Part shown: one piece after another, positions 141 to 13,401 of the stretch
Numbering within the stretch: position 1 is the first letter of the stretch
Layout: every line of letters starts with the position of its first letter
From: Candidatus Omnitrophota bacterium
Lineage (GTDB): Bacteria; Omnitrophota; Gorgyraeia; Duberdicusellales; 4484-171
DNA: 17,036 nucleotides
NCBI GenBank assembly: GCA_021735655.1
Contig: JAIPGM010000014.1
Span: 1-17,036, forward strand
Direction of reading: 5' to 3'
Notes under the pieces: generated by a model
The model's input: the letters and a program-made list of their open reading frames with translations, nothing else
What the model was told of the DNA's origin: nothing
Databases searched by the model: none
Position numbers and translations under genes: made by a program

Positions 141-752
141 ATGAAACATTTTTATTTTTTCGGGTTGGCGGTTTTGTTGTTTTTAGGTCTGGCTTGCGAT
201 CGAGGTCCACAAGAGGTAGTTATCGACAGTTTTGAGAGTGAAATAAATCCAAAAACTGTTGATTTTGGTGCAAGTGAGAATTCGTCTATAAGCGTTGATT
301 TAGCCAAGGATATAAAAGTTTGTGGTGAGCAGTCGTTAAAAATGACTTATGATTTAAGGCCTTCGGGGTATATGTGGGTTGCTCGAGGTTATGGCTTAGA
401 CGTTGAAGGGGCTGCTCTTTGGGAAGTTAAACCTAAAGATATCAAATGGAAGAGATATAAATCAATTAGTGTTGCGATATACGGACGGAACTCGGGAGGC
501 GTTTTAGCTTTTGACTTAAAGGATAGTGGTGGAGAAATGTGGCGGACTATTATTGATGATGATTTTGAGGGTTGGAAAGGTGTAGTTTGTCCTTTCAAGA
601 ATTTCTTTCCTCGTAAAGATTGGCAACCGGACACTGCCAAGAAGAATGATAAATTAGACTTTCCGATTATGAGTTTTCAATTCGAGCCACGGCTTCCTGG
701 CATCGGCGTCTATTATTTTGACTGCATAAAGGCTGTGAAAGTAGAAAAATAA
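141..752 (+). CDS. Putative secreted lipoprotein with a beta-sandwich (CBM / galactose-binding-like) appearance. Function unknown.
   Basis: Hydrophobic N-terminal signal followed by a Cys (…FLGLAC|DRG), which is lipobox-like. AGGAG RBS 6 nt upstream. The mature part is rich in Gly, aromatic and acidic residues (GYMWVARGYG, DDDFEGWKG), reminiscent of carbohydrate-binding or CIA30-type beta-sandwich domains. The stop TAA is immediately followed by the ATG of the next gene. Confidence 0.55.
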   Translation: MKHFYFFGLAVLLFLGLACDRGPQEVVIDSFESEINPKTVDFGASENSSISVDLAKDIKVCGEQSLKMTYDLRPSGYMWVARGYGLDVEGAALWEVKPKDIKWKRYKSISVAIYGRNSGGVLAFDLKDSGGEMWRTIIDDDFEGWKGVVCPFKNFFPRKDWQPDTAKKNDKLDFPIMSFQFEPRLPGIGVYYFDCIKAVKVEK

Positions 753-1778
753 ATGTCCGGTAAAGTCATTGATTTATCAAAGCTAAGCGAAGAGGAATTA
801 CTTAAGGTTAAAATTCGTGACCTGGGCCTCTCAATAGAAGGCACTTGGTTAGAAGATTGTATTCAGCAGTTATATGGAGAACTTGATTCTCAAGGAATCA
901 AGTTCAAACCACCTTGCTACTTAGCCGATGAATGGCTTGCTCCTGATGAAGAGCCAATAATTGGAATACCTTTTTTTTTAGCCCATCCGACGCTTATTAA
1001 GCTAGAAAGGAAAATGATGCTTGATGTCGAAGGTGGTACAAAAGCCTGGTGTATGAAGTTACTTCGTCATGAAACTGGCCATGCTTTAAATTATGCCTAC
1101 AAGCTTTATCGTCGGAAAAACTGGCAAAAGATATTTGGAAAATTTTCCAAGGAGTACGCTGATACTTATCGTTTTCGTCCTTATAGCAAGAATTTCGTTC
1201 GGCATTTGGAAAATCATTATGCTCAATATCATCCTGATGAGGATTTTTCGGAAACTTTTGCTGTCTGGCTTACGCCGGGGCTTAATTGGCAACAACAGTA
1301 TAAGGGTTGGCGGGTGATAAGTAAACTTCATTATGTCGATAAGATTATTAATGAAGTAAAAGATAAAGAGCCATTGGTGGAAAAGGGTAGTCGTTATTGG
1401 GAAGCTAGACGCATGCGCACGACTTTGAAGAGTTTTTATAAGAAAAAACGTCGTTCCTACGCAGAGGATTTTCCTGATTTTCACGATTCTAACTTAAGAC
1501 GAATATTTACCTTACCGGAACCGGAAAGCAAACCTTTGTCTTCGGCGGCAGCAATTTTAAAAAAGTACCGCAAAGAAATATTGAATAATGTAGCTCGTTG
1601 GACCGGAGAAAGAAAATATATTATTGGAGACCTTATTGATACTTTGATTCAGCGATCTAGGGAACTTAAATTGGTGGTTGTTGATCAGGAATCGCTGGCG
1701 GTACTTAAAATTTCTACCTATATTACGACTTTGGTGATGAACTATCTTTATACTGGAGGCTTTAGTAAGGAAAGATGA
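753..1778 (+). CDS. HExxH zincin-like putative metallopeptidase; family uncertain.
   Basis: Canonical HExxH (H-E-T-G-H, aa 106-110, nt 1068-1082) inside a helix-like context (LLRHETGHALNYAYKL). A possible third ligand (Glu/His) sits downstream (HYAQYHPDEDFSETFAVW). Start abuts the upstream stop (TAA-ATG), and the 3' end overlaps the next gene by 4 nt (ATGA). Confidence 0.6.
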   Translation: MSGKVIDLSKLSEEELLKVKIRDLGLSIEGTWLEDCIQQLYGELDSQGIKFKPPCYLADEWLAPDEEPIIGIPFFLAHPTLIKLERKMMLDVEGGTKAWCMKLLRHETGHALNYAYKLYRRKNWQKIFGKFSKEYADTYRFRPYSKNFVRHLENHYAQYHPDEDFSETFAVWLTPGLNWQQQYKGWRVISKLHYVDKIINEVKDKEPLVEKGSRYWEARRMRTTLKSFYKKKRRSYAEDFPDFHDSNLRRIFTLPEPESKPLSSAAAILKKYRKEILNNVARWTGERKYIIGDLIDTLIQRSRELKLVVVDQESLAVLKISTYITTLVMNYLYTGGFSKER

Positions 1779-2794
1779 AAAAACTAAGGGTTCTTTTGCT
1801 TTTTGATAGTCCAGTTTCGAGAATGCGCGGTTATGACTTTAAAGAGGAATTTAAGGATGTTGATTGGGATACCGAGCGCAGCACTTATGAAGTTTTAACT
1901 AAAGCGGGACACGAGGTAAGGATCTTAGGTCTTTATAATAATATTAATATACTTCTTGAAGAGATTGCCGAAATCAAACCGGACATAATTTTCAATATGG
2001 CTGAAGTGTTTAATCAAAAGTCATACCTAGATAAGAATGTTGCCGGAGTTCTTGAGATGCTAGATATTCCTTATACCGGGGCATCTTTAACTACTTTGGC
2101 TATTTGCGGCGATAAAGCTTTATGTAAAAAGATACTTAGTTTTCATAGAATTAAAGTTCCCCAGTTTTATACTTTCTATCGTCACCGGCGGATCTGGCTT
2201 CCTAAGAGACTTCGTTTACCATTAATTGTTAAACCGCTCAGTGAAGAAGCTTCTCGAGGGATTTCTCAAGCTTCAATCGTCGACAATGAGGAGGCGATGA
2301 TTGAGAGAGTTAAGTTTATTCATGATAGTATGAAGAATGACGCCATAGTTGAAGAATACATCGAAGGTCGGGAGCTTTATGTTAGTGCAATTGGTGATAA
2401 GCGAATTAAGATTTTACCTATGCGTGAGATGAAGTTTGGTAGCCTCGGTGAAGATGAGCCGCGGATCGCTACCTATAAGGCAAAGTGGGATTATAAATAT
2501 CGAAAAAAGTGGGAAATTAAAAATATGTTTGCCGGAAGGCTACCTAATGGCTCAACCGAGAAGATAAATGAAGTTTGCAAGCGTGCCTTTAGAGCTTTAA
2601 ATTTGGAGTGTTACGCCCGTTTTGACATTCGTTTAACAAACGATTCAAAAATATATATTCTTGAAGTTAATGCTAACCCTTCTTTAGACCCTGATGATGA
2701 ATTGGCCCAGTCAGCAGAAAAGGGTGGATTAACTTACGATAAGCTTATTCAAAAAATATTGATATTGGGGCTTAAGAGAGGTGGAAATAATTAA
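1775..2794 (+). CDS. ATP-grasp enzyme of the D-Ala-D-Ala ligase / RimK-like superfamily (amidoligase).
   Basis: Collinear with the Ddl fold throughout. RVLLLFD at the N-terminus; DIPYTGASLTTLAICGDKALCKKIL in the central domain; PLIVKPLSEEASRGIS (P-loop-like); EEYIEGRELYVSAIGD; an omega-loop-like KAKWDYKY; and the C-terminal Mg/ATP motif ARFDIRLTNDSKIYILEVNANPSL. It lacks the HG..GEDG block I expect in genuine Ddl. Confidence 0.85.
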   Translation: MKKLRVLLLFDSPVSRMRGYDFKEEFKDVDWDTERSTYEVLTKAGHEVRILGLYNNINILLEEIAEIKPDIIFNMAEVFNQKSYLDKNVAGVLEMLDIPYTGASLTTLAICGDKALCKKILSFHRIKVPQFYTFYRHRRIWLPKRLRLPLIVKPLSEEASRGISQASIVDNEEAMIERVKFIHDSMKNDAIVEEYIEGRELYVSAIGDKRIKILPMREMKFGSLGEDEPRIATYKAKWDYKYRKKWEIKNMFAGRLPNGSTEKINEVCKRAFRALNLECYARFDIRLTNDSKIYILEVNANPSLDPDDELAQSAEKGGLTYDKLIQKILILGLKRGGNN

Positions 2795-2796
2795 TT

Positions 2797-3054
2797 ATGG
2801 GTGCAGAGATTTTTGTAGCTCGTTGTTATGATGTTGGAGGAGTAGGTTTGGTAATCAATGGCTGGGTCCAGTCAGGTGAGATTAGGGAAGGATCAGTCGG
2901 TAGAACCTATAAAGGAAAAAGATTTACTTTGGTAAAGATTGAAAAAGAAGGTAAGCAAATTCCTAAGGCTGTTGAGAAAGATAAGATTAATCTTTTTGTT
3001 AAACATGTTAACCGCACTGAGGTGAAGCCGGGTGAGACTGTTTATTTTGAGTAG
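2797..3054 (+). CDS. Small (85 aa) stand-alone beta-barrel protein resembling EF-Tu domain 2 (translation-protein beta-barrel). It ends in -VYFE.
   Basis: The whole length matches EF-Tu D2: VGGVGLVINGWVQSGEIREGSVG aligns with GTVVTGRVERGIIKVGEEV, and the C-terminal KINLFVKHVNRTEVKPGETV aligns with [21 protein letters not shown]. Starts 2 nt after the ATP-grasp stop. Family placement is by eye, so confidence is moderate. Confidence 0.5.
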   Translation: MGAEIFVARCYDVGGVGLVINGWVQSGEIREGSVGRTYKGKRFTLVKIEKEGKQIPKAVEKDKINLFVKHVNRTEVKPGETVYFE

Positions 3055-3639: not shown

Positions 3640-4395
3640 ATGTCTAAAACTGTAAAAAATTTAATTATTGCCAATGTTTCAGTTTTTCTGCTTAGCTCTA
3701 TTTGGCAAGAGTTTCCGATCGGGCTGTTAGCTATGGTTCCGAGATTGGTCTTTTCAAAGTTAATGATTTGGCAGCTAGTTACCTATATGTTTGTGCATCT
3801 TGATTTGTGGCATTTGGTGATGAATATGCTGATGCTTTGGTTTTTTGGACCAGCAATCGAGGCAGCTTGGGGCCAGAAGCGATTTTTAATTTATTATTTT
3901 TTTACTGGTATCGGCGCAGCTTTATGCAGTGTTATTTTTTCCTTTAATTCACCGATAATCGGAGCCTCGGGTGCAATATTTGGAATATTGGTTGCTTACG
4001 CCATGCTTTATCCTGATAATATGATTTTGTTTTTTTTCTTTGTTCCGATGAAGATGAAACATGCTGTTTTTGTCTTAGCCGGAATAAATCTTTTGGGGGC
4101 AATTTCAGCTTCTGGCAGTGGCATTGCTTACATAGCTCATTTAGGCGGTGGTCTTTTTGGTTACCTTTACTTAAAAAACGAAACTTTACGCCATCGCCTT
4201 CTATCTTTAGACTTTGAGAAGATCAAATCATGGTTTAATAAGCCATCGGCAAAACCGACAAAGTCTACTAAACCCAATAAGCCTAAAACCTTTGATGAAC
4301 GGGTTGATGAGATTCTTGATAAGATATCCAAGAAAGGAATGGCTAGCCTTACTAAGGAGGAGATAGATATCCTTGATCGACGTAGTCGTTCTTAA
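3640..4395 (+). CDS. Rhomboid-family intramembrane serine protease with a C-terminal Pro/Lys-rich linker and a SHOCT-like tail.
   Basis: Multiple TM helices. Catalytic GxSG (GASGAIFGIL) and a His in AHLGGGLFG sit in the last TM helices. The tail KPSAKPTKSTKPNKPK followed by ERVDEILDKISKKGMASLTKEEIDILD fits the L-x-L-x3-G-x-[IL]-T-x-EE-[FI] SHOCT pattern. Confidence 0.85.
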   Translation: MSKTVKNLIIANVSVFLLSSIWQEFPIGLLAMVPRLVFSKLMIWQLVTYMFVHLDLWHLVMNMLMLWFFGPAIEAAWGQKRFLIYYFFTGIGAALCSVIFSFNSPIIGASGAIFGILVAYAMLYPDNMILFFFFVPMKMKHAVFVLAGINLLGAISASGSGIAYIAHLGGGLFGYLYLKNETLRHRLLSLDFEKIKSWFNKPSAKPTKSTKPNKPKTFDERVDEILDKISKKGMASLTKEEIDILDRRSRS

Positions 4396-4437
4396 CCCGC
4401 CATTTTGTTAGTTTTTCCTAGAAACTTACTGCTGAGC

Positions 4438-4466
4438 TTGACAAACCAAGATAAATAGGCTATACT
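4438..4466 (+). promoter_or_regulatory. Near-consensus sigma70 promoter: TTGACA (4438-4443), 17 nt spacer, TATACT (4461-4466).
   Basis: Read directly from the sequence. It lies in the only sizeable intergenic gap (4396-4512), about 47 nt upstream of the MarR ATG. An AGGAGG Shine-Dalgarno is at 4501-4506. Confidence 0.6.
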
Positions 4467-4473
4467 TTGGTTG

Positions 4474-4495
4474 ATTAATAGTTCACATTATTAAT
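4474..4495 (+). promoter_or_regulatory. Inverted repeat ATTAATA-N8-TATTAAT between the -10 element and the RBS; candidate MarR operator.
   Basis: Perfect 7-bp arms read from the sequence. Position relative to the -10/+1 region is typical of MarR autoregulatory sites. The AT-rich context makes chance palindromes more likely. Confidence 0.35.
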
Positions 4496-4512
4496 ATTTT
4501 AGGAGGTTAATT

Positions 4513-4974
4513 ATGCCTAAAGAAAGTCAAATAAAACAATTTTCTCAAGAGCTTACCGAAAGTATATCTTATATCCAGCGAATGGCCCGAATATTGCTAA
4601 GAGAGCGTTCCGATGCATTAATTCAGGGAAAAGTAACCATGCCCCAGTATTTGAGTCTCGAGTTGCTCAGTAATCATGGCGTTCTAAAGATGAAAGATAT
4701 TGCCAAAGCTTTAAATATTAGTCTTCCAGCGGCAACTGGCTTGGTGAATCGTTTGGTCAAAATGAAGTTAGTTGAGCGGGTTTATGATCAAGAAGACCGC
4801 CGGGTAATATTTGTTGAGCTCACCAGTGAAGGGAAAAAAACTACTGATGAAACTAAGTTAGCCCGGAGAAAAATTATTGAGGAGATGTTTGGCGGTATTA
4901 CCGATGAAGAAAGGGAAATTTATATTAGAATTATTCGCAAGGTAAAGAGTAATTTAAATGAAAAAGCTAAGTAA
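4513..4974 (+). CDS. MarR-family winged-helix transcriptional regulator.
   Basis: The wHTH core (TMPQYLSLELLSNHGVLKMKDIAKALNISLPAATGLVNRLVKMKLVERVYDQEDRRVIFVELTSEGKK) matches the MarR recognition helix and wing pattern. Size is 153 aa. The 3' end overlaps the next gene by 17 nt. Confidence 0.85.
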   Translation: MPKESQIKQFSQELTESISYIQRMARILLRERSDALIQGKVTMPQYLSLELLSNHGVLKMKDIAKALNISLPAATGLVNRLVKMKLVERVYDQEDRRVIFVELTSEGKKTTDETKLARRKIIEEMFGGITDEEREIYIRIIRKVKSNLNEKAK

Positions 4975-6439
4975 AAGTAAAAACATTAGTTTATTTTTAA
5001 TTCTAGTGGCAGGATTTTTTTTAACTTTTAAAGGTTTCACTGAAGACCTATTGCCTTTGGAATTGTCTTTAGAAGAGGTAACCGAGATTGCTTTGGAAAA
5101 TTCTTTGGATATTCAGATTGCTAAGTTTGATACCTATATTAGTAGAACCTCTAAAGATGAGGCTGAATCAATATTTGATACTATTTTTAGCGCTGAAGCT
5201 AGCTATAATCGAAATCGAAAAGAAACGGCCAGTTCTTTGGCCGGAACCGATACTCGAGAGACTATTTTTTCATTGGGTCTTGAGAAAAAACTACCTACCG
5301 GAACCACGCTTGCTCTAGATGCAATCAACACCAAGACTAAAACTAATAGTTCTTTTACTACCTTAAATCCTTATACTGAAGCTGGGCTTGAATTTTCAGT
5401 AACTCAGGAGTTAGGTAGGAATTTCTTTGGCTTAGCTGATCGGGCTAAGATTAAAATTACTAAAATCGATATTGAAAATTCTGAGTTTGTGTCTTTGGAT
5501 GATATTGAACAGTTTCTCTATGCTGTTCAGCGTTCCTATTGGAATTTAGCACTTCGCGAAGAAGAGCTTTTAATCGCTAAAGATATGCTGTCGGAAGCAG
5601 AAAAACTTTATGAAATTTACAAGGAAAAGAAAGAGCTAGGCTTGGTCGAGGAGAGTGAATTTTTAGCAATTGAGGCTTTACTTAAGGCCCGTCAAAGTAG
5701 CATTAATGTAGCTCAATTAGCTCGGGAAACGGCAAAGAATGATTTATTATTTTTAATTAACCGTGGTGATTTTCAGCAAAATCTTATTCCTCGGGATAGT
5801 CTAGATATCGAGGTTTTTGAGACAGATTTATATCAAGCTTTGAATCGGGCAGTTGATTCGCGTCGTGACTATAAGCGGATTAAAAATGAGTTAGAGAAAA
5901 ACAAGATTGATTTGGTGGTTAAAAAGAATGCCCTTTGGCCGCAAATAGATTTTGAGGCTACTTTTACTCGCAATAATATTGATACCGGACGCAGTCAGGC
6001 TTGGGGGGATATTTTTAGCGATGGCGGCGAAGATGTTTTTTTTAAAGTAAGTTTTGAGGTACCGCTTGAAAAAAGAGCGGCTCGTTCTCAAGTTCGCAAG
6101 GCCGACTTAGAAAAATCTCGGTTTTTACTCAAGTTTAAGCGAATTGAACGTCTATTGTTACAGGAAATCAACGATAAGGTTAATCAGGTAAATACGATGC
6201 AGAATCAAGTCAAACTATTTAAGCAGACGGTTAAAATTCATCAGCGCAAACTTAAGAGTCAAATTGAGCGTTTAAGTTTGGGGCGCTCTGATTCAGATAC
6301 GCTTATTCGTTACGAGGAAGACTTATTAAAAGCACGTTTATCTTTAGCGGAGTATTTATTTAATTATCGTACTAGTTTGATCGAGCTGGATTTAAAACAG
6401 AACATTTTACTAGATAAGTATTGGCAGGAGCCACTTTAG
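4958..6439 (+). CDS. TolC-family outer-membrane efflux protein (outer membrane factor, OMF).
   Basis: N-terminal signal peptide, then the classic OMF opening (LSLEEVTEIALENSLDIQIAKFD…). Two-fold internal repeat of beta-strand and coiled-coil segments. 493 aa. Confidence 0.85.
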   Translation: MKKLSKSKNISLFLILVAGFFLTFKGFTEDLLPLELSLEEVTEIALENSLDIQIAKFDTYISRTSKDEAESIFDTIFSAEASYNRNRKETASSLAGTDTRETIFSLGLEKKLPTGTTLALDAINTKTKTNSSFTTLNPYTEAGLEFSVTQELGRNFFGLADRAKIKITKIDIENSEFVSLDDIEQFLYAVQRSYWNLALREEELLIAKDMLSEAEKLYEIYKEKKELGLVEESEFLAIEALLKARQSSINVAQLARETAKNDLLFLINRGDFQQNLIPRDSLDIEVFETDLYQALNRAVDSRRDYKRIKNELEKNKIDLVVKKNALWPQIDFEATFTRNNIDTGRSQAWGDIFSDGGEDVFFKVSFEVPLEKRAARSQVRKADLEKSRFLLKFKRIERLLLQEINDKVNQVNTMQNQVKLFKQTVKIHQRKLKSQIERLSLGRSDSDTLIRYEEDLLKARLSLAEYLFNYRTSLIELDLKQNILLDKYWQEPL

Positions 6440-6451
6440 GAGAGCAAAGCG

Positions 6452-9400
6452 ATGAGTATTGTTGAATTTTCAGTAAAGCGTTCACTTTTAGTAAACCTTA
6501 TTTCAGTTTTTATCTTAGTCGCTGGGTTTTTGTCGGTTTTTGTGTTTAAGATTAGAAGAGAGGCTTTTCCTGAAGTTTCTTATGACATTGTCATTGTTAG
6601 TACGGTTTATCCGGGGGCAGCCCCCGAGGAGGTAGAAAAGCTAGTTACCATACCGATTGAAAAGGAGTTAAAGGGAGTAGACGGAATAGAGAAGATGAAG
6701 TCTACCTCCCTAGAGAACTCTTCAAACATTTCAATCGAGATAAGCCAAGATGTAAAAAACAAGCGCAAGGTTATTACCGATATTCAAAAGGCGGTTGATC
6801 GAGTAAGAGATTTACCGGCCGGAGTAGAGGATGACCCAGTAGTAAGTGAGGTTACTTCTGGAGAGTTTCCGGTAGTTCAGGTAGCCTTAAGTGGTGATAT
6901 GCCTGAGAAAGAGCTTCAAGAGTATGCTGAAAATCTAGAAGATATCCTAGAAGATATTCCTGGTGTTTCAAAGATTTCTCGGATTGGTTATCGAGATCGA
7001 GAAGTCTGGGTTGAGGTTGATCCACAAAAGCTAAGCTCTTTTCATTTAAGCCTTGAAGAGGTAATGGAAGCTCTGGCTAGGAAAAACCGAAGTATTCCCG
7101 GAGGAAAAATCAGAGGAGTTCAAGAGTTCAGCATTCGGACAACCGGTGAATTTTATACTAAAGAAGAAATTGAAGATGTGGTTATCCGGGCTAATGAGAC
7201 TGGGAATTGGCTAAGAGTAAAAGATGTGGCTGAAGTAAAGTTTTCTTTTGAGGATGAAAACACAATTAATAAAAGTTTTGGTACTCGGTCGATAGACCTT
7301 ACTGTAATCAAGCGGGCTAGCGGTGACGCGATTGAAATAGTTGAAAAAGTCAAGCTTAAGACTGAAAAATTTTTAACTCAGACAAATGATTCTCGTTTGG
7401 AAACTTCTTACATTAATGACATATCTTTTTATATTAAACGTCGGCTAGGTACGCTTAAAAATAACGGAATAGTCGGTATTGTTTTAGTTTGTTTTGTTTT
7501 GATGATATTTTTGCAATTTCGGATTGCTTTGATAACTGCTATTGGACTTCCGATTGCTTTTTGTGCAACTTTGGCGGTAATGAGCTTTGTTGGTTTGAGT
7601 ATAAACCTAGTTACCATGTTTGGTTTGATTGTGGTTTTGGGTATGTTAGTTGATGATGGCATTATTGTTTCTGAGAATTGTTCACGCTATCTAGAAGAGG
7701 GCCATTCACCTTATCAGGCGGCTATTTTAGGAACCCAGGAAGTAATAAAACCAGTTACTACTACAATAATTACGACCATTGCTGCTTTTAGTCCGCTTCT
7801 TTTTATGGGGGGGATGATGGGGAAGTTTATCTGGGGGATACCTCTGGTAGTTATTATTGCTCTTTGTGCTTCTTTATTTGAAGCCTTAGTTATTTTGCCT
7901 TCGCATTTTGCCGATTTTATTCGTCGGGATAAAAATTTTAAATCGCGTAAAGAACTCCCTTGGTTTAAGAAATTGGTCGTTGTCTATACTCGATTAGTGA
8001 CTAAGGCTTTAAATCGGCGTTGGTGGGTATTGGGAGGATTATTTTTAGTTTTAATTTTAACTGTTGGTTTAGTTATGCACATGCCAAAAATTCTTTTTGC
8101 TTCTGAAGAAGGAATAGAAGAGTTTACTGTCCGGGCCGAAGCCCCAGTCGGAACTAATCTTTATTCCACTGATAAGTTAATTAAACCGATAGAGGAAGAA
8201 GTCGCTAAGATGCCTAAAAATCAGGTCGAAGCCTACACTACTCAAGTTGGTTCAATCGGTGATAGTTGGCATTTTGATCCTTATGGTAAGAGCGGTAGCC
8301 ATGTAGTTCAGGTGACAGTTCACTTAACGCCTTATAAGCAGCGCAAAAGAAAGGTTAGTCAGATCATCGAAGACCTACGAACTAAAATTGGTGATGTTGA
8401 GGGGTTTGATCGGGTTTACTTTGAGAAACCTCAGGCTGGACCTCCGGTCGGTGCACCGGTTGCGGTTGAAATTCGCGGCGAGAGCTTTGAAGTTTTAAAC
8501 AAAATCGCTAATCAGATAAATGAATTTTTAAAAACCATTCCCGGTATTTCCGATATAGTATCTGATTATGAGGTTGGCAGAGGAGAAATTCGGGTTATTG
8601 TTGATGAAGAAAAAGCTGCCCGGACCTATTTGTCGGTCGGTGAAGTGGCTTCAAGTATTCGCAATGCTTTTCGCGGCGGGGTGGCTACTTCAATTAAGCC
8701 GGTTAAGGCTGAAGAAGAGATTGATGTTTTAGTGAGATTTCCCGATGACTATCGTACTAAGCGAGAATCCTTTGAAAAAATATTAGTTCCTAATAAGTTT
8801 GGTAATTTAATCCCTTTAGCTAAGATAGCTAGATTTGAGGATGGTGTATCGGTAGCCAGGGTTCAGCATCTCGACGGAAAAAGAGTGATATCGGTCAAAG
8901 CTAACGTTGATAACCAGAACATTACTTCTAATGAAGCTAATAAGCTGATTAAGGATAAATTTAAGGATGTTTCAATTAATTTTCCCGGATATAGTATACA
9001 GTTTGGCGGAGAGCAAAGGGAAAATGTCCGTTCAATGAAAGATTTCGCTAATGCTTTTATTCTGGCCTTGTTTTTAATTTTTTTAATTTTAGCCGCTAAC
9101 TTTAATTCATTGGTTCAGCCGTTAATCGTTATGATGGCGATTCCTTTTGGTTTTATCGGAGTCATCTGGGCTTTTTTCTTCCATGGTTTACCGATCGGTT
9201 TTTTTATGTTTATGGGTGCAGTAGGTTTAACTGGAATAGTAGTTAATGATTCTATAGTTTTGGTTGAGTTTGTTAATAATTTAAGAAGAAAAGGGGTCGA
9301 TCGAAGACATTCATTAATTCAAGCCGGTCAGTTACGCTTGCGGCCGGTTTTACTTACTACGATTACTACTGCTCTTGGTTTGACCCCGACAGCCTATGGT

Positions 9401-9574
9401 ATTTGGGGCGGAGACCCATTTTTAAAGCCAATGGCTTTGACTATTGTTTGGGGTATAGTTTGTGCAACCGTTCTAACTTTGGTTGTCTTGCCTTGTATTT
9501 ATGCTATTATAGATGATATTACTTTAAAGCTGGCTGGCCATACGACAGTTAAGAAAAGCAATATCACTATATGA
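6452..9574 (+). CDS. RND-superfamily efflux permease (AcrB-like, HAE1-type architecture, 12 TM).
   Basis: 1040 aa. TM1 followed by a large periplasmic domain (VSTVYPGAAPEEVEKLVTIPIEKEL). The TM4 proton-relay pair is present (MLVDDGIIVSEN; DD at nt 7652-7657). There is a second large periplasmic loop, and an Arg in TM11 (LRLRPVLLTT). No adaptor gene is present either side. Confidence 0.93.
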   Translation: MSIVEFSVKRSLLVNLISVFILVAGFLSVFVFKIRREAFPEVSYDIVIVSTVYPGAAPEEVEKLVTIPIEKELKGVDGIEKMKSTSLENSSNISIEISQDVKNKRKVITDIQKAVDRVRDLPAGVEDDPVVSEVTSGEFPVVQVALSGDMPEKELQEYAENLEDILEDIPGVSKISRIGYRDREVWVEVDPQKLSSFHLSLEEVMEALARKNRSIPGGKIRGVQEFSIRTTGEFYTKEEIEDVVIRANETGNWLRVKDVAEVKFSFEDENTINKSFGTRSIDLTVIKRASGDAIEIVEKVKLKTEKFLTQTNDSRLETSYINDISFYIKRRLGTLKNNGIVGIVLVCFVLMIFLQFRIALITAIGLPIAFCATLAVMSFVGLSINLVTMFGLIVVLGMLVDDGIIVSENCSRYLEEGHSPYQAAILGTQEVIKPVTTTIITTIAAFSPLLFMGGMMGKFIWGIPLVVIIALCASLFEALVILPSHFADFIRRDKNFKSRKELPWFKKLVVVYTRLVTKALNRRWWVLGGLFLVLILTVGLVMHMPKILFASEEGIEEFTVRAEAPVGTNLYSTDKLIKPIEEEVAKMPKNQVEAYTTQVGSIGDSWHFDPYGKSGSHVVQVTVHLTPYKQRKRKVSQIIEDLRTKIGDVEGFDRVYFEKPQAGPPVGAPVAVEIRGESFEVLNKIANQINEFLKTIPGISDIVSDYEVGRGEIRVIVDEEKAARTYLSVGEVASSIRNAFRGGVATSIKPVKAEEEIDVLVRFPDDYRTKRESFEKILVPNKFGNLIPLAKIARFEDGVSVARVQHLDGKRVISVKANVDNQNITSNEANKLIKDKFKDVSINFPGYSIQFGGEQRENVRSMKDFANAFILALFLIFLILAANFNSLVQPLIVMMAIPFGFIGVIWAFFFHGLPIGFFMFMGAVGLTGIVVNDSIVLVEFVNNLRRKGVDRRHSLIQAGQLRLRPVLLTTITTALGLTPTAYGIWGGDPFLKPMALTIVWGIVCATVLTLVVLPCIYAIIDDITLKLAGHTTVKKSNITI

Positions 9575-11463
9575 TTTTTTTAAATAACCTTTCCAAAAGT
9601 TACGGTTCGAGGATTCTTTTTGAGAATTTTTCCTTAACCATTGATCGCGGTGAACGAATCGGCTTGGTTGGTCCCAACGGAGCTGGCAAATCTACACTTT
9701 TCAATATTATTCTTAAGCAAAACGAAAGCTCTTCGGGAACTATTCAGATAAATAAAGGTGTTCGTATTGGTTATCTTGCTCAAGAGGTAACCTTTAATTC
9801 AGAAGCTACAGTTTTGTCAGAGCTAACTGCTGGTGATGAGTCGATTAAGAAGCTCAAAAAAGAAAAGGATGCTTTAGAGAAAGAGAACAAAGCTGCCGGA
9901 GCTCGCTACGGGGCAGTACTCCACGATTTAGAGTTTTTTGGTTATTTTGATTTAGAGCATCGAGCTAAAAAAATATTAAGCGGCTTAGGCTTTGCGAATT
10001 CAGATTTTAATCGGCCGGTTAATGAAATGAGCGGTGGTTTTAAGATGCGAGTTTTATTGGCTAAGCTGTTGCTGTATCCTTATGATATTTTACTTTTGGA
10101 TGAACCTACCAACTTTCTAGATTTAGAAGCAGCTATTTGGTTTAAAGATTATTTATTAAAATTTAAGGGAACTTTTGTGATGATTTCTCACGATCGGGAT
10201 TTTCTTACCGAGGTAACCAGCGACACTTTAGTTTTAGAAAACGGAGCAATCACTAAGATCAAGGGAAATTATGATGATTATGAAAAGATGTGTAATGAGC
10301 AGCGAGAGCGCCTGCTTAAGCAGTTTAAGGAGCAGGATAAAAAGTGTAAACAATTGAAAGTTTTTATTAATCGGTTTCATGCTCAGCCGAATAAGGCTTC
10401 CCAGGTTAGATCTAAGAAACGGATGTTAGAGAAGATGGATATCATTAACGTACCGTTAGATCGCAAGGAAAGTATCCGCAAGTTTAATTTTCCAAAGGCC
10501 ACACGCAGTGGCTACCGGGCGATAGAGCTTAAAAGTATTTCTAAAGCTTACGGTGATATCTCGGTGTATCAAGATTTTGATTTTGAACTAACTCGAGGAG
10601 AAAAGTCAGTTTTTATCGGCCATAATGGAGCCGGCAAATCGACCCTCTTAAAGATTTTGGCCGGAGTTATTGATATTGATTCCGGATCGCGGATTCTTGG
10701 CACCAATATTGATATTGGTTATTTTTCACAAACCCGTCTTGATGTTCTAACTCCCGATAATACTGTTTTTGAAGAAGCCTATTCAGCTTCCGGAGGCAGG
10801 CTGACTAATGATGAGATTAGAACGGTTTTGGCCGCTTTTTTATTTACCGGAGACGATGTTGAGAAGAAGGTTAGCATTCTTTCCGGAGGAGAGAAGAGTC
10901 GTTTGATTTTAGCAAAACTTTTAATTAACCCTCCTAACTTTTTGCTTTTGGATGAGCCGACAACTCATCTTGATGTTGATGCAGTTGAGGCATTAATCAG
11001 AGCTTTAAAAGAATACGACGGAACACTTGTTTTTATAAGTCATGATATCCATTTTGTTCGCTCGGTAGCCAATATGGTTTTTGAAATCAATAAGGGGCGA
11101 GTAAGGAAATTTCCCGGCAGCTTTGATTACTATTGGCAAACTGCCAGGCATAAAGATGTTGTTGAGCTTAAACGTAAAAAAATAAAATCGAAATCGTCCC
11201 CAGTAAAAGAAATGTCAGAAAAAGATAAGGAAAAGAAACAAAAAAAAGAAAACGAGAAAATTTCCAAGAAGATAAAAGCCCTTAGGAAAGAAAAAGAAGA
11301 CTTAGAGCTGGAATATAATGTGAAGTGGCGGGTTGTTTCTAATCCCCGCAGCTATCATCGTAAAGAGGTAGCTTCTGAATATAGCCAACGCTTGAAAGAA
11401 CTGAAGTGCCAAATAGCGAAAAATGATCAAGAGATAAAGGACCTCAAAAAGCTGTTTAAATAG
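9571..11463 (+). CDS. ABC-F family ATPase: two ABC domains, an inter-domain linker, and a Lys/Glu-rich C-terminal coiled-coil (Uup/EttA-like architecture).
   Basis: Two Walker A motifs (GPNGAGKST, GHNGAGKST) and two signature motifs (MSGGFKMRV, LSGGEKSRL). Walker B motifs LLLDEPTNFLD and LLLDEPTTHLD. No transmembrane domain. The C-terminal KRKKIKSKS…KEKKQKKENEKISKKIKALRKEKEDLE tail is present. The ATG overlaps the RND stop (ATGA). Confidence 0.9.
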   Translation: MIFLNNLSKSYGSRILFENFSLTIDRGERIGLVGPNGAGKSTLFNIILKQNESSSGTIQINKGVRIGYLAQEVTFNSEATVLSELTAGDESIKKLKKEKDALEKENKAAGARYGAVLHDLEFFGYFDLEHRAKKILSGLGFANSDFNRPVNEMSGGFKMRVLLAKLLLYPYDILLLDEPTNFLDLEAAIWFKDYLLKFKGTFVMISHDRDFLTEVTSDTLVLENGAITKIKGNYDDYEKMCNEQRERLLKQFKEQDKKCKQLKVFINRFHAQPNKASQVRSKKRMLEKMDIINVPLDRKESIRKFNFPKATRSGYRAIELKSISKAYGDISVYQDFDFELTRGEKSVFIGHNGAGKSTLLKILAGVIDIDSGSRILGTNIDIGYFSQTRLDVLTPDNTVFEEAYSASGGRLTNDEIRTVLAAFLFTGDDVEKKVSILSGGEKSRLILAKLLINPPNFLLLDEPTTHLDVDAVEALIRALKEYDGTLVFISHDIHFVRSVANMVFEINKGRVRKFPGSFDYYWQTARHKDVVELKRKKIKSKSSPVKEMSEKDKEKKQKKENEKISKKIKALRKEKEDLELEYNVKWRVVSNPRSYHRKEVASEYSQRLKELKCQIAKNDQEIKDLKKLFK

Positions 11464-11487
11464 GCCATTTTTTGCTATAATCATTAG

Positions 11488-12270
11488 ATGTTTGTAATTA
11501 AGATAAAGCCTGAAAGAAAAATTGATATTATTGTTCGGATCGGCCTGTATATAAGCCTAGGTTTACTTATTGCTTCTTTTGTTCAAAAAGGCGTACTTCC
11601 CAAAAAGAAAGCAATACATCCTGATTTGTATCAAGAGCCGATTCAGCGTGAGACCTACACTCCTTCTTTTGAAGCAAAAGCTGAGGGTTCAATTTACGAT
11701 ATAAATCCGAGTCACCACTATAAACTTAATGGTTTGGTTGTTTCTCAACACGACTCAACCGCTTGGTGGGATTATTATCATAAAAAATGGGGTGATTCAT
11801 TAAATCTAAAAGATGTTTGTGTTATTTGGGGCGATAACCTTGAGAATGAAACCTATCGAAGAATGCGTTTTAGAAATGGTAATTGGACTTGCTATGTGTC
11901 AGTAAATCATAAAACAGCTGATCAAGATTGGGCACAGTTTAATATGGCGGCTTTATCCAATAATCACCTTTTGTCGGATAAAGCTGAAATCAACCAGGCT
12001 TTACGCAAGGTGCATGTTGGTGATCAGATTTATCTCAAAGGATACTTGGCATCCTATCATCGTCAAGGAAGCCATTTTTCTCGTGACTCAAGTATCTCGC
12101 GAACCGATGAAGGTGATGGCGCTTGTGAAACAATTTACCTTACTGATTTTAAGGTTCTTAAAAGCGCTAATTTTTTTTGGTGGTCAGTTTATGGAGTATC
12201 TAAATATTTAGTCTTGATATTATTCATTTTTTTAGTTTTCCTTCGAATTCAAGCCCCTTTGAGCAGGTAA
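11488..12270 (+). CDS. Hypothetical membrane protein of unknown function, with a TM helix at each end.
   Basis: Predicted TM helices at aa ~15-35 and ~225-250, flanking a ~190-aa hydrophilic domain rich in Trp, His and Tyr (WWDYYHKKWGDS, NGNWTCYVSVNH). I see no recognisable family motif. The start has a weak RBS. Confidence 0.5.
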   Translation: MFVIKIKPERKIDIIVRIGLYISLGLLIASFVQKGVLPKKKAIHPDLYQEPIQRETYTPSFEAKAEGSIYDINPSHHYKLNGLVVSQHDSTAWWDYYHKKWGDSLNLKDVCVIWGDNLENETYRRMRFRNGNWTCYVSVNHKTADQDWAQFNMAALSNNHLLSDKAEINQALRKVHVGDQIYLKGYLASYHRQGSHFSRDSSISRTDEGDGACETIYLTDFKVLKSANFFWWSVYGVSKYLVLILFIFLVFLRIQAPLSR

Positions 12271-12279
12271 AAAATTATC

Positions 12280-13401
12280 ATGATTACCAAACCATTATTA
12301 TTAAAAGTTTATGAAGCAGCCAGCATGCAGCGCTGGAATGATCAGATTAAGGCGGTGGAGCTTACTGAGCTCGATAAGCAAGCGCATAAGATGATCATTG
12401 CCTATTGCTTAGGCAAGTGTCAGGAGAAGTACAAGACGGCCGGTTTTAACTGGATCGAGATTATCGAAGCCGGAATATTTGAATATTTACAGCGAATAGT
12501 TCTTACTGATTTAAAGCCACCCTTATTTCATCGGATAAAGGAAGATCAGGATAAATACCGGCGTCTTAATGAATGGGTTTATGAAAAAATAGAAAAGGTT
12601 ATTCGGCCGCTTGGTGAAGGATTTTGCCAGCGCTTTAATTCCTATCTTCTAGATCCTAAGCGGAATGTGAACCGAAGGATTATAAGTGCTGCTCACTTTT
12701 ATGCAACTAAATGGGAGTTTGATATAATTGAACGGGCCAATCCTCAAGGTTATTTGATTGAAGAGATCAGGGAAGATATCCGTACCAAACAGGAACGTTA
12801 TCACGATTTAGAAAGTATGCAGGATTTGTTAAATTCACCCGGTCTTAAGAGTTTTGTGAATATTTGCGGCCAGCTTCGTTTTCAGATTCGCTGGAGTCAT
12901 CTTCCGAGAGTTCCTAAGACCTCGGTATTGGGCCATATGCTGATTGTCGCTATGATTGCCTATCTTATGTCTGAAAATTCCGGTGCCGATTCTGAGCGTT
13001 GCTTGAACAATTATTTAACCGGGCTGTTTCATGATTTACCTGAGGTTTTAACTCGGGATGTAATTAATCCGGTAAAAAGATCGGTTGAAGGTTTGGATGA
13101 CTTAATTAAAGAGTATGAGCGCCAGGAAATGGAAAGAAAAATATATAAGTTAATTCCTACCGATTGGCATTCTCAGATGAGGAATTTTACCGAAGAAGAG
13201 TTTACTAACACTGCTTCCCGCGATGGAGAGCTTATTAAGGCAGTTGATGAGTTGGCTGCCTTTCTGGAGGCCTATTTATCTTTGGCTAATGGCATTCAGA
13301 GCCAAGATTTTACAACAGCTAAGAAATCTCTGCCGCGTAAGTATAAGTCTAAAATAATTGCCGGAGTTAATTTCGCTAAGATTTATAAAGAGTTTTGTTG
13401 A
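12280..13401 (+). CDS. HD-domain phosphohydrolase of the YfbR-like (5'-deoxynucleotidase, HD_3) type, carrying a duplicated, degenerate N-terminal HD-like domain.
   Basis: C-terminal half: IRWSHLPRVPKTSVLGHMLIVAMIAY (His219) and LTGLFHDLPEVLTRDVINPVK (H251-D252, nt 13030-13035), then KAVDELAAFLEAY. This matches YfbR's RW…SEHSLQVAMVAHA / YHDASEVLTGDLPTPVK / KQADALCAYLK. The N-terminal half repeats the same pattern (QRWNDQ…, RIVLTDLKPPL) but has E-Y where the H-D dyad should be (nt 12481-12486). Confidence 0.75.
   Translation: MITKPLLLKVYEAASMQRWNDQIKAVELTELDKQAHKMIIAYCLGKCQEKYKTAGFNWIEIIEAGIFEYLQRIVLTDLKPPLFHRIKEDQDKYRRLNEWVYEKIEKVIRPLGEGFCQRFNSYLLDPKRNVNRRIISAAHFYATKWEFDIIERANPQGYLIEEIREDIRTKQERYHDLESMQDLLNSPGLKSFVNICGQLRFQIRWSHLPRVPKTSVLGHMLIVAMIAYLMSENSGADSERCLNNYLTGLFHDLPEVLTRDVINPVKRSVEGLDDLIKEYERQEMERKIYKLIPTDWHSQMRNFTEEEFTNTASRDGELIKAVDELAAFLEAYLSLANGIQSQDFTTAKKSLPRKYKSKIIAGVNFAKIYKEFC

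Follow-up and report, generated by a model that had tools for sequence, protein, structure and literature searches.

An ABC-F gene abutting an RND efflux cassette in Candidatus Omnitrophota probably encodes a housekeeping YheS/YbiT-like translation factor

The 17,036-bp stretch analyzed here (the window) makes up one whole contig of a Candidatus Omnitrophica metagenome-assembled genome and carries a gene for an ABC-F protein (9571–11463, forward strand, 630 aa) immediately behind genes for a MarR-family regulator, a TolC-like outer-membrane efflux protein (OEP) and an AcrB-type permease of the resistance-nodulation-division (RND) family. An earlier, sequence-only reading of this DNA had seen in the ABC-F protein a possible functional unit of a MarR-controlled efflux operon. 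The comparison with related genomes does not support that proposal: the junction with the RND gene is confined to a few close relatives, the same ABC-F gene adjoins recR or glmS elsewhere, and the protein separates from the antibiotic-resistance (ARE) members of the family. We consider it probable that it is a housekeeping translation factor of the YheS/YbiT/YdiF type and that its position beside the RND gene is a by-product of gene packing. No functional link of the ABC-F protein to efflux is demonstrated, and the comparative context explains its placement.

The evidence that carries this view comes from the neighborhoods of the orthologous genes. A homologue search gave several thousand matches; the best 120 are full length with 59–100% identity, and the named ones among these 120 are nearly all from Omnitrophota/Omnitrophica. 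The orthologue group as a whole spans Omnitrophota, with hundreds of proteins at an identity of at least 59%. Neighborhoods were examined at graded ABC-F identity to the window, with flanks of up to 10 kb on each side. The order MarR-OEP-RND-ABC-F with a direct RND/ABC-F overlap was found in the loci L001 (85% identity), L003 (81%), L005 (73%) and L079/L082 (73%); since the last two are 97% identical to each other and count once, there are five distinct junction lineages including the window. All of them have an ABC-F identity of at least 73%, and in all of them the whole neighborhood, from the rhomboid gene to the HMGL-like gene, is syntenic as well. Two loci are intermediates in the decay of the junction. 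In L007 (70%) an HTH_17 gene and a Fic gene lie between RND and ABC-F, with a 17-nt overlap of the Fic gene and the ABC-F start; in L008 (66%) MarR-OEP-RND is followed by an HD gene, genes for an RRM protein and ribosomal protein S21 (opposite strand), a metallophosphatase and a small open reading frame (ORF), with the ABC-F gene 3 kb away. A metallophosphatase and a small ORF also lie upstream of ABC-F in L080 (65%), where no MarR, OEP or RND match is present. In L081 (65%), again with no MarR, OEP or RND match, the upstream gene is of the glmS type and its stop shares 1 nt with the ABC-F start, and in L009 (64%) and L010 (63%) there is no RND gene within 10 kb of ABC-F.

The more distant loci show the same absence. 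A contig scan with query-specific peptides was informative for L011–L023, which are 13 species-representative Omnitrophota-type genomes with an ABC-F identity of 57–66%; the remaining loci (L024–L068) hold distant ABC proteins that are irrelevant here. At 66% identity or less, no RND gene stands beside ABC-F in any of the 14 testable loci, and the window's MarR, OEP and RND used as tblastn queries gave no match at E ≤ 1e-5 in L009–L023. The commonest arrangement in the distant species representatives is dnaX-recR-ABC-F, with recR upstream at gaps of about 2–12 bp in 6 of the 14 loci (L013, L014, L015, L017, L018 and L021), and this may be the ancestral position of the gene. Other upstream neighbors are glmS, TP_methylase, PagL-like, Band_7 and unannotated genes, and an amino-acid permease gene on the opposite strand. 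The tree within the clade, (((window, L005), L007), L008) with 97% support, mirrors the decay of synteny. The distribution of orthologues, the stepwise loss of context and the matching tree together identify the ABC-F gene as a vertically inherited, phylum-wide orthologue, and the RND junction arose recently, as a derived state, in one subclade. The sequence-only reading had made much depend on whether the adjacency is kept in relatives: it is indeed not unique to this genome, but it is limited to five close, syntenic lineages.

The HTH_17 gene and the small Fic gene form a toxin-antitoxin-like pair found just upstream of ABC-F in two divergent lineages (L007 9337–10017, L010 8639–9318; Fic proteins 69% identical). 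In L007 the pair separates RND from ABC-F, and in L010 it sits between glmS and TP_methylase-ABC-F; the same flanks occur without it in their relatives, the window and L081. It looks like a small module that has been repeatedly inserted or lost 5' of the ABC-F gene.

The tightness of the RND/ABC-F junction has to be read against the packing of the whole window, in which the coding density is about 97% and all gene-map ORFs (at least 80 aa) lie on the forward strand. GC content is flat across the window (36–40%), and that of the ABC-F gene matches that of its flanks. Among the 16 junctions of the window, 12 measure 25 bp or less, three of the 16 are overlaps (peptidase-like/ATP-grasp, 4 nt; MarR/OEP, 17 nt; RND/ABC-F, 4 nt) and one is of 0 bp; the RND/ABC-F overlap is therefore not distinctive. 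The tight junctions include gene pairs without any plausible functional link, and the HD phosphohydrolase and MTHFR genes overlap by 4 nt in relatives. Packing of this kind is also found in Escherichia coli, where the yheS stop overlaps the yheT start and the gap between rlmL and uup is 11 bp. Tight abutment to whatever gene lies upstream is a general habit of this ABC-F gene and of these genomes.

The protein itself has the architecture of a soluble ABC-F factor, as had been predicted, with a first nucleotide-binding domain (NBD1) that bears an arm-length insert, a linker, a second such domain (NBD2) and a C-terminal extension. Two ABC_tran domains were recognized (Pfam PF00005, two stretches, 175 bits), and the catalytic motifs are intact in both NBDs: Walker A (aa 34/350), signature (aa 153/437), Walker B-Glu (aa 173/457) and H-loop (aa 205/489). 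There is no transmembrane (TM) segment in the ABC-F protein, the maximal 19-residue hydropathy being 1.22 with no segment at or above 1.6 (RND: 2.76), and profile searches of the window ORFs found no gene for a partner ABC permease. The linker between the NBDs (aa 222–302; 10234–10476), which is the region of the motif for interaction with the P-site tRNA (PtIM), matches ABC_tran_Xtn (PF12848, 71.5 bits, cut-off 25.9), in agreement with the length of about 80 aa given by the earlier reading. The same reading had called the linker housekeeping-like rather than of the long ARE type, and this is confirmed by the distance from Walker B1 to Walker A2, which is 177 aa here compared with 175 in YheS, 175 in Uup, 176 in YbiT and 173 in EttA of E. 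coli, and with 208 in Msr(A) and about 204 in Lsa. The arm-length insert gives NBD1 a spacing of 119 aa (YheS 116, Msr(A) 65). After Walker B2 there are 173 residues (YheS 186, Uup 174, EttA 90, YbiT 71), and the last 110 aa (aa 521–630; 11131–11460) form a Lys/Glu-rich extension that is 49% K/R/E/D. The resemblance of this charged tail to Uup and EttA, as first noted, stands for Uup, and extends to YheS, but not for EttA, which has no such tail.

The generic ABC-F model NF000355 is the sole NCBIfam model that the protein passed (455.9 bits, cut-off 380). Equivalog status in EttA (433–440 bits, cut-offs 599–807), YbiT (409, cut-off 762), Uup (351, cut-off 900) and YheS (NF007921; 391, cut-off 917) was rejected, all scores being under the NCBIfam cut-offs, which span 599–936 over these models, and the label justified by these scores is only "YheS/YbiT-like". 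The curated NCBIfam models for AREs (Msr, Vga, Lsa, Sal, OptrA, CplR and the producer type) were likewise missed by a wide margin, as shown by Vga (318 bits, cut-off 725), OptrA (290, cut-off 1450), Msr (278, cut-off 680) and Lsa (220, cut-off 750). The closest solved structures in a PDB search are E. coli YheS (337 bits, aa 5–579) and YbiT (329 bits), followed by ABCF1, EttA, Uup and PoxtA at about 244–256 bits, and the ARE structures VmlR, Vga-type, Msr(E), Lmo0919 and Lsa(A) score 129–203 bits. A neighbor-joining tree (25 sequences, 521 columns, 100 bootstraps) was built with ABC-Fs of E. coli K-12 and ABC-Fs from resistance plasmids as references, six of the references being AREs, and with ten Omnitrophota proteins. 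The ten Omnitrophota proteins form a single clade (99% bootstrap), and a split with 100% support places them with YheS, YbiT, Uup, EttA and other chromosomal ABC-Fs on one side and OptrA, PoxtA, MsrA, MsrE, LsaB and LsaE on the other. The phylogenetic placement that the sequence-only reading had called for thus groups the protein with the E. coli housekeeping ABC-Fs and apart from the six AREs. ARE membership was rejected on this split, on the model scores and on the linker, which is not extended.

The nearest named branch to the Omnitrophota clade is YheS (37% bootstrap; pairwise identity 33.5%). The YdiF subfamily is a catch-all for widely distributed bacterial ABC-Fs that have no place in the other subfamilies, and DAF2 is a small uncharacterized subfamily recorded from Omnitrophica, Planctomycetes, Spirochaetes and Proteobacteria (PMC6723617, Table 1 for DAF2). 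The Omnitrophota clade plausibly falls in the YdiF, YheS or DAF2 group of the scheme of Murina et al. (2019). The likeness to YheS is nevertheless broad: it gives the best PDB match, the lengths are nearly the same (630 and 637 aa), and linker spacing, arm and long C-terminal extension are alike; the difference, besides the equivalog cut-off, lies in the K/E-rich low-complexity sequence of the tail in the window protein. YbiT, Uup and EttA share with it the twin-NBD and PtIM architecture, the linker length and the same side of the ARE split, and YbiT is 36% identical over aa 1–521; YbiT and EttA differ in having no long C-terminal extension (71 and 90 aa). OptrA and PoxtA are also similar in linker spacing and arm (35% and 31% identity), OptrA additionally in its long C-terminal extension, but they are plasmid- or transposon-borne in Firmicutes whereas the window protein is encoded by a chromosomal, phylum-wide orthologue.

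At the junction, the RND ORF (6452–9574) stops with TGA at 9572–9574 and the ABC-F ORF opens with ATG at 9571–9573, so that the ATGA overlap described earlier (9571–9574, forward strand) is borne out by the ORF coordinates. The start at 9571 is the genuine N-terminus, because 19 ABC-F orthologues begin at the same motif (M-I-x-[LI]-x-N-L-S-K-x-Y-G). Co-translation of the two genes, which had been concluded from the overlap, may at most be suggested by this geometry. The window shares an overlap of 4 nt (ATGA) with L001, L003 and L005; in L079/L082 the overlap is of 8 or 11 nt, the stop is TAG, and the C-terminus of the RND protein also differs from that of the other junction lineages. A conserved coupling sequence was therefore rejected, since overlap geometry and RND C-terminus vary from lineage to lineage. 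An AGGAGG-type Shine-Dalgarno (SD) sequence precedes many neighboring genes and is absent at the ABC-F gene of the window. It is equally absent before the gene in all 19 orthologues, whatever lies upstream and including the case of an opposite-strand gene; the lack of an SD is thus a property of the ABC-F gene, and it was rejected as proof of a dependence on RND translation.

The best sigma-70-like promoter match in 4300–12400 is TTGACA-17-TATACT (4438–4466, forward strand, 11 of 12 matches), which sits upstream of marR in the sole sizeable intergenic gap (117 bp). Since the total of promoter-like sites (21) is not above that of shuffled sequences (19.3 ± 4.4), only position and conservation of sites were drawn upon, and this promoter is credited with positional plausibility only. 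A perfect 7-bp inverted repeat, ATTAATA-N8-TATTAAT (4474–4495), lies between the -10 hexamer and the marR SD and is a candidate MarR operator, although it is short and AT-rich and may have arisen by chance. No terminator-like site was found between RND and ABC-F, and read-through from the marR promoter is therefore plausible. A weaker, candidate internal promoter with a TG extension, TTGTCT-16-TATTAT (9483–9510, forward strand, 9 of 12 matches), lies in the 3' coding region of the RND gene, its extended -10 element TGCTATTAT being at 9502–9510; the distance from there to the ABC-F ATG is 60 nt. When the six junction-bearing sequences are compared, positions 9497–9510 (14 nt) are the longest invariant nucleotide run of the 3.1-kb RND gene and the sole stretch of it with four consecutive invariant third positions, the overall invariance of third positions being 16%. 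The motif is destroyed in L007 and L008, the loci in which ABC-F does not follow directly, by differences at third positions, with an I to L or I to V change at two codons. The run was rejected as a significant signal by itself. Its coincidence with the TG-extended -10-like site and its loss in L007 and L008 are the reasons why the internal promoter was kept as a suggestive candidate which, if real, would give MarR-independent transcription of ABC-F.

A related element, TTGCTATAAT, corresponds to a TG-extended -10 consensus and lies at 11472–11481, where it ends 6 nt before the ATG of the 260-aa ORF downstream of ABC-F; in L009 and L011 it also stands about 8–10 nt ahead of the ABC-F ATG. Leaderless or near-leaderless mRNAs are thereby suggested for the lineage, which would fit the absence of an SD on these genes.

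Taken as the orthologue, in Omnitrophota, of a YheS/YbiT/YdiF-type housekeeping translation factor, the protein would act as its relatives do. By homology with the structures of YheS, YbiT and EttA, its ATP-bound form would bind the ribosomal E site, with the inter-domain linker reaching toward the P-site tRNA and the peptidyl-transferase center, where it would relieve problematic or stalled translation, and it would leave the ribosome after ATP hydrolysis. YheS frees ribosomes arrested on SecM, and each of the four ABC-Fs of E. coli deals with sequences that are difficult to translate (PMC11162784, PMC13249984). As the comparative context shows, the place beside RND came about recently, in one subclade, through gene packing and through rearrangements on a local scale in a genome that is compact and co-directional. 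Translation is probably started by SD-independent initiation, as in all orthologues, and transcription may come from read-through and/or from the internal extended -10 promoter, so that it might be at least partly MarR-independent.

Several observations weigh against this explanation. The junction has persisted in five lineages, and read-through is likely, from the sequence signals, to put some ABC-F expression under MarR control. An invariant run of 14 nt or more in the RND gene arises gene-wide in 11% of codon-column shuffles (P = 0.11), which bears on the internal promoter. The YheS sister grouping is weak at 37% bootstrap and the YheS equivalog model gave 391 instead of 917 bits. The AREs are a polyphyletic assemblage, able to arise from housekeeping ABC-Fs (PMC6723617), and an extended linker is not universal among them, the linkers of OptrA and PoxtA being near-standard (175 and 184 aa by the Walker spacing used above); for these two reasons phylogeny and linker length leave room for a protective activity. 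The sequence-only reading had itself named coincidental packing as the outcome to expect if the protein clustered with housekeeping factors and the adjacency was unique to this compact genome. The housekeeping grouping and the compact genome were both found and that outcome essentially holds; the uniqueness of the adjacency does not.

Other explanations give the adjacency a function. A model in which the ABC-F protein energizes or gates the efflux pump as its ATPase subunit (the old view of Msr as an efflux pump) has only gene adjacency in its favor and is effectively refuted: RND pumps are driven by the proton-motive force, the ABC-F protein has no TM domain and no partner permease gene in the window, and its linker is a PtIM-type ABC_tran_Xtn domain. 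The ABC-F family acts on ribosomes and not in efflux (PMC6723617). It is very improbable, too, that the protein is a cis-acting helper for the synthesis of the polytopic RND protein or of other hard-to-translate envelope proteins, with the overlap tying the dosage of the two. YheS, the closest characterized relative, resolves secretion-linked nascent-chain arrest (PMC11162784, PMC13249984), and the overlap together with the missing SD could permit coupling by termination-reinitiation; yet orthologues have no SD in every context, most Omnitrophota lineages hold the gene without a neighboring RND, no arrest motif was identified, and the idea is pure speculation.

A dual-defence operon, in which the ABC-F gene has been recruited to the MarR-regulated efflux operon so that a xenobiotic that releases MarR co-induces the pump and a ribosome-protecting or ribosome-rescuing factor, is unlikely. 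In its favor, co-transcription from 4438–4466 is likely, given that stop and start overlap and no terminator intervenes, the junction is retained in five lineages, and AREs can derive from housekeeping ABC-Fs (PMC6723617). There is also a precedent, contrary to the earlier belief that no operon of efflux and ABC-F genes was known: in mefA/msrD (mefE/mel) a single polycistronic, drug-responsive transcript carries an efflux gene and, behind it, an ABC-F gene, and the two proteins are synergistic (PMC10314930). However, the pump there belongs to the major facilitator superfamily whereas here it is an RND permease, and the ABC-F protein there is a true ARE (Msr, with a long linker and no arm), which is not the case here. 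Additionally, mefA/msrD is regulated by leader-peptide attenuation, with a separate ribosome-binding site and a leader between the genes, and is carried on mobile elements. None of this applies to the window: there is no leader peptide or attenuator, and no room for a drug-sensing one (0 bp upstream of ABC-F in the window, 44–72 bp in L008/L009), and in the loci examined the surroundings are chromosomal housekeeping genes, with no mobile-element or antibiotic-producer context. A literature search found general reviews only and no paper describing an operon of RND, MarR and ABC-F genes, and a search for Omnitrophota with efflux gave nothing relevant. The comparative data also stand against recruitment, since the gene is the vertically inherited phylum-wide orthologue and not a paralogue acquired in addition, adjoins recR, glmS and other genes elsewhere, and in L007 tolerates an HTH/Fic insertion between RND and itself; whole-neighborhood synteny explains why the junction is retained. 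The protein lies outside the ARE references with 100% bootstrap and under all ARE model cut-offs, and the junction-specific promoter-like element, conserved at synonymous sites, hints at independent transcription.

A milder version, also improbable, is restricted to the junction subclade: a housekeeping YheS-like ABC-F gene would have come partly under MarR control via read-through, pump and ribosome-rescue factor being co-induced under xenobiotic stress in an early, non-mobile stage of the mefA/msrD logic, possibly balanced by a constitutive internal promoter. If this were true, it would show a housekeeping ABC-F entering a drug-responsive regulon before ARE-type specialization, and it would bear on the repeated evolution of ARE ABC-Fs from housekeeping ancestors. 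With packing as the preferred explanation, the window protein is an ordinary new member of a known translation-factor family in a compact genome. As it stands the finding matters little, as it concerns an uncharacterized family member from an uncultivated phylum whose efflux neighbor is there by local synteny. It does carry a caution: where a genome is compact and co-directional, a stop/start overlap of 4 bp and a shared orientation are the default and are silent on shared function.

The efflux cassette begins with the MarR-family gene (4513–4974, 153 aa; PF01047, 51.9 bits, with no NCBIfam equivalog at cut-off). It is followed, with a 17-nt overlap, by the TolC-like outer-membrane factor (4958–6439, 493 aa; PF02321, two stretches, 116.5 bits), which has an N-terminal signal-like hydrophobic segment (aa 9–28), and by the AcrB-type RND permease (6452–9574, 1040 aa; PF00873, 690 bits, profile positions 1–1020 of 1021), which scores 598 bits against NCBIfam RND_permease_2, under the cut-off of 1250; all three are on the forward strand. 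Permease and outer-membrane factor genes of a tripartite RND system are thus present, but the adaptor gene is not. No match to a periplasmic adaptor (membrane fusion protein/HlyD family) was found among the window ORFs, for the unannotated ones even at E ≤ 1, nor is one listed in the flanks read (up to 10 kb on each side) of L001, L003, L005, L007, L008, L079 and L082. RND and OEP are of standard size with no obvious adaptor fusion. The adaptor gene may lie in another part of the genome; if it does not, this pump, conserved in Omnitrophota, operates without a canonical adaptor. In L001–L008 the RND protein is 79–86% identical to that of the window and the ABC-F protein 66–85%, so that RND is as conserved or more; this conservation, unusual for an accessory efflux pump, suggests a core physiological role.

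The remaining genes of the window lie on both sides of this region. Upstream the order is CBM11-like, peptidase-like, ATP-grasp, 85-aa ORF, AMMECR1 and rhomboid, and downstream of ABC-F it is a 260-aa membrane protein without family, a YfbR-like HD phosphohydrolase, MTHFR, peroxiredoxin, a 117-aa ORF, an HMGL-like gene and KDPG aldolase. The 260-aa ORF (11488–12270) has hydrophobic N- and C-terminal segments and no Pfam or NCBIfam match. It is kept directly 3' of ABC-F in the junction lineages (66–68% identity) and shows no similarity to the PrsW-type protease found at the same position in L007. At the other end, the region 141–3054 holds the CBM11-like gene, a zinc metallopeptidase-like gene (under the Pfam cut-off), the ATP-grasp gene, which is D-Ala-D-Ala-ligase-like, and the 85-aa ORF, with gaps of 0, -4 and 2 bp, and could be a small cluster for peptide modification or peptide ligation.

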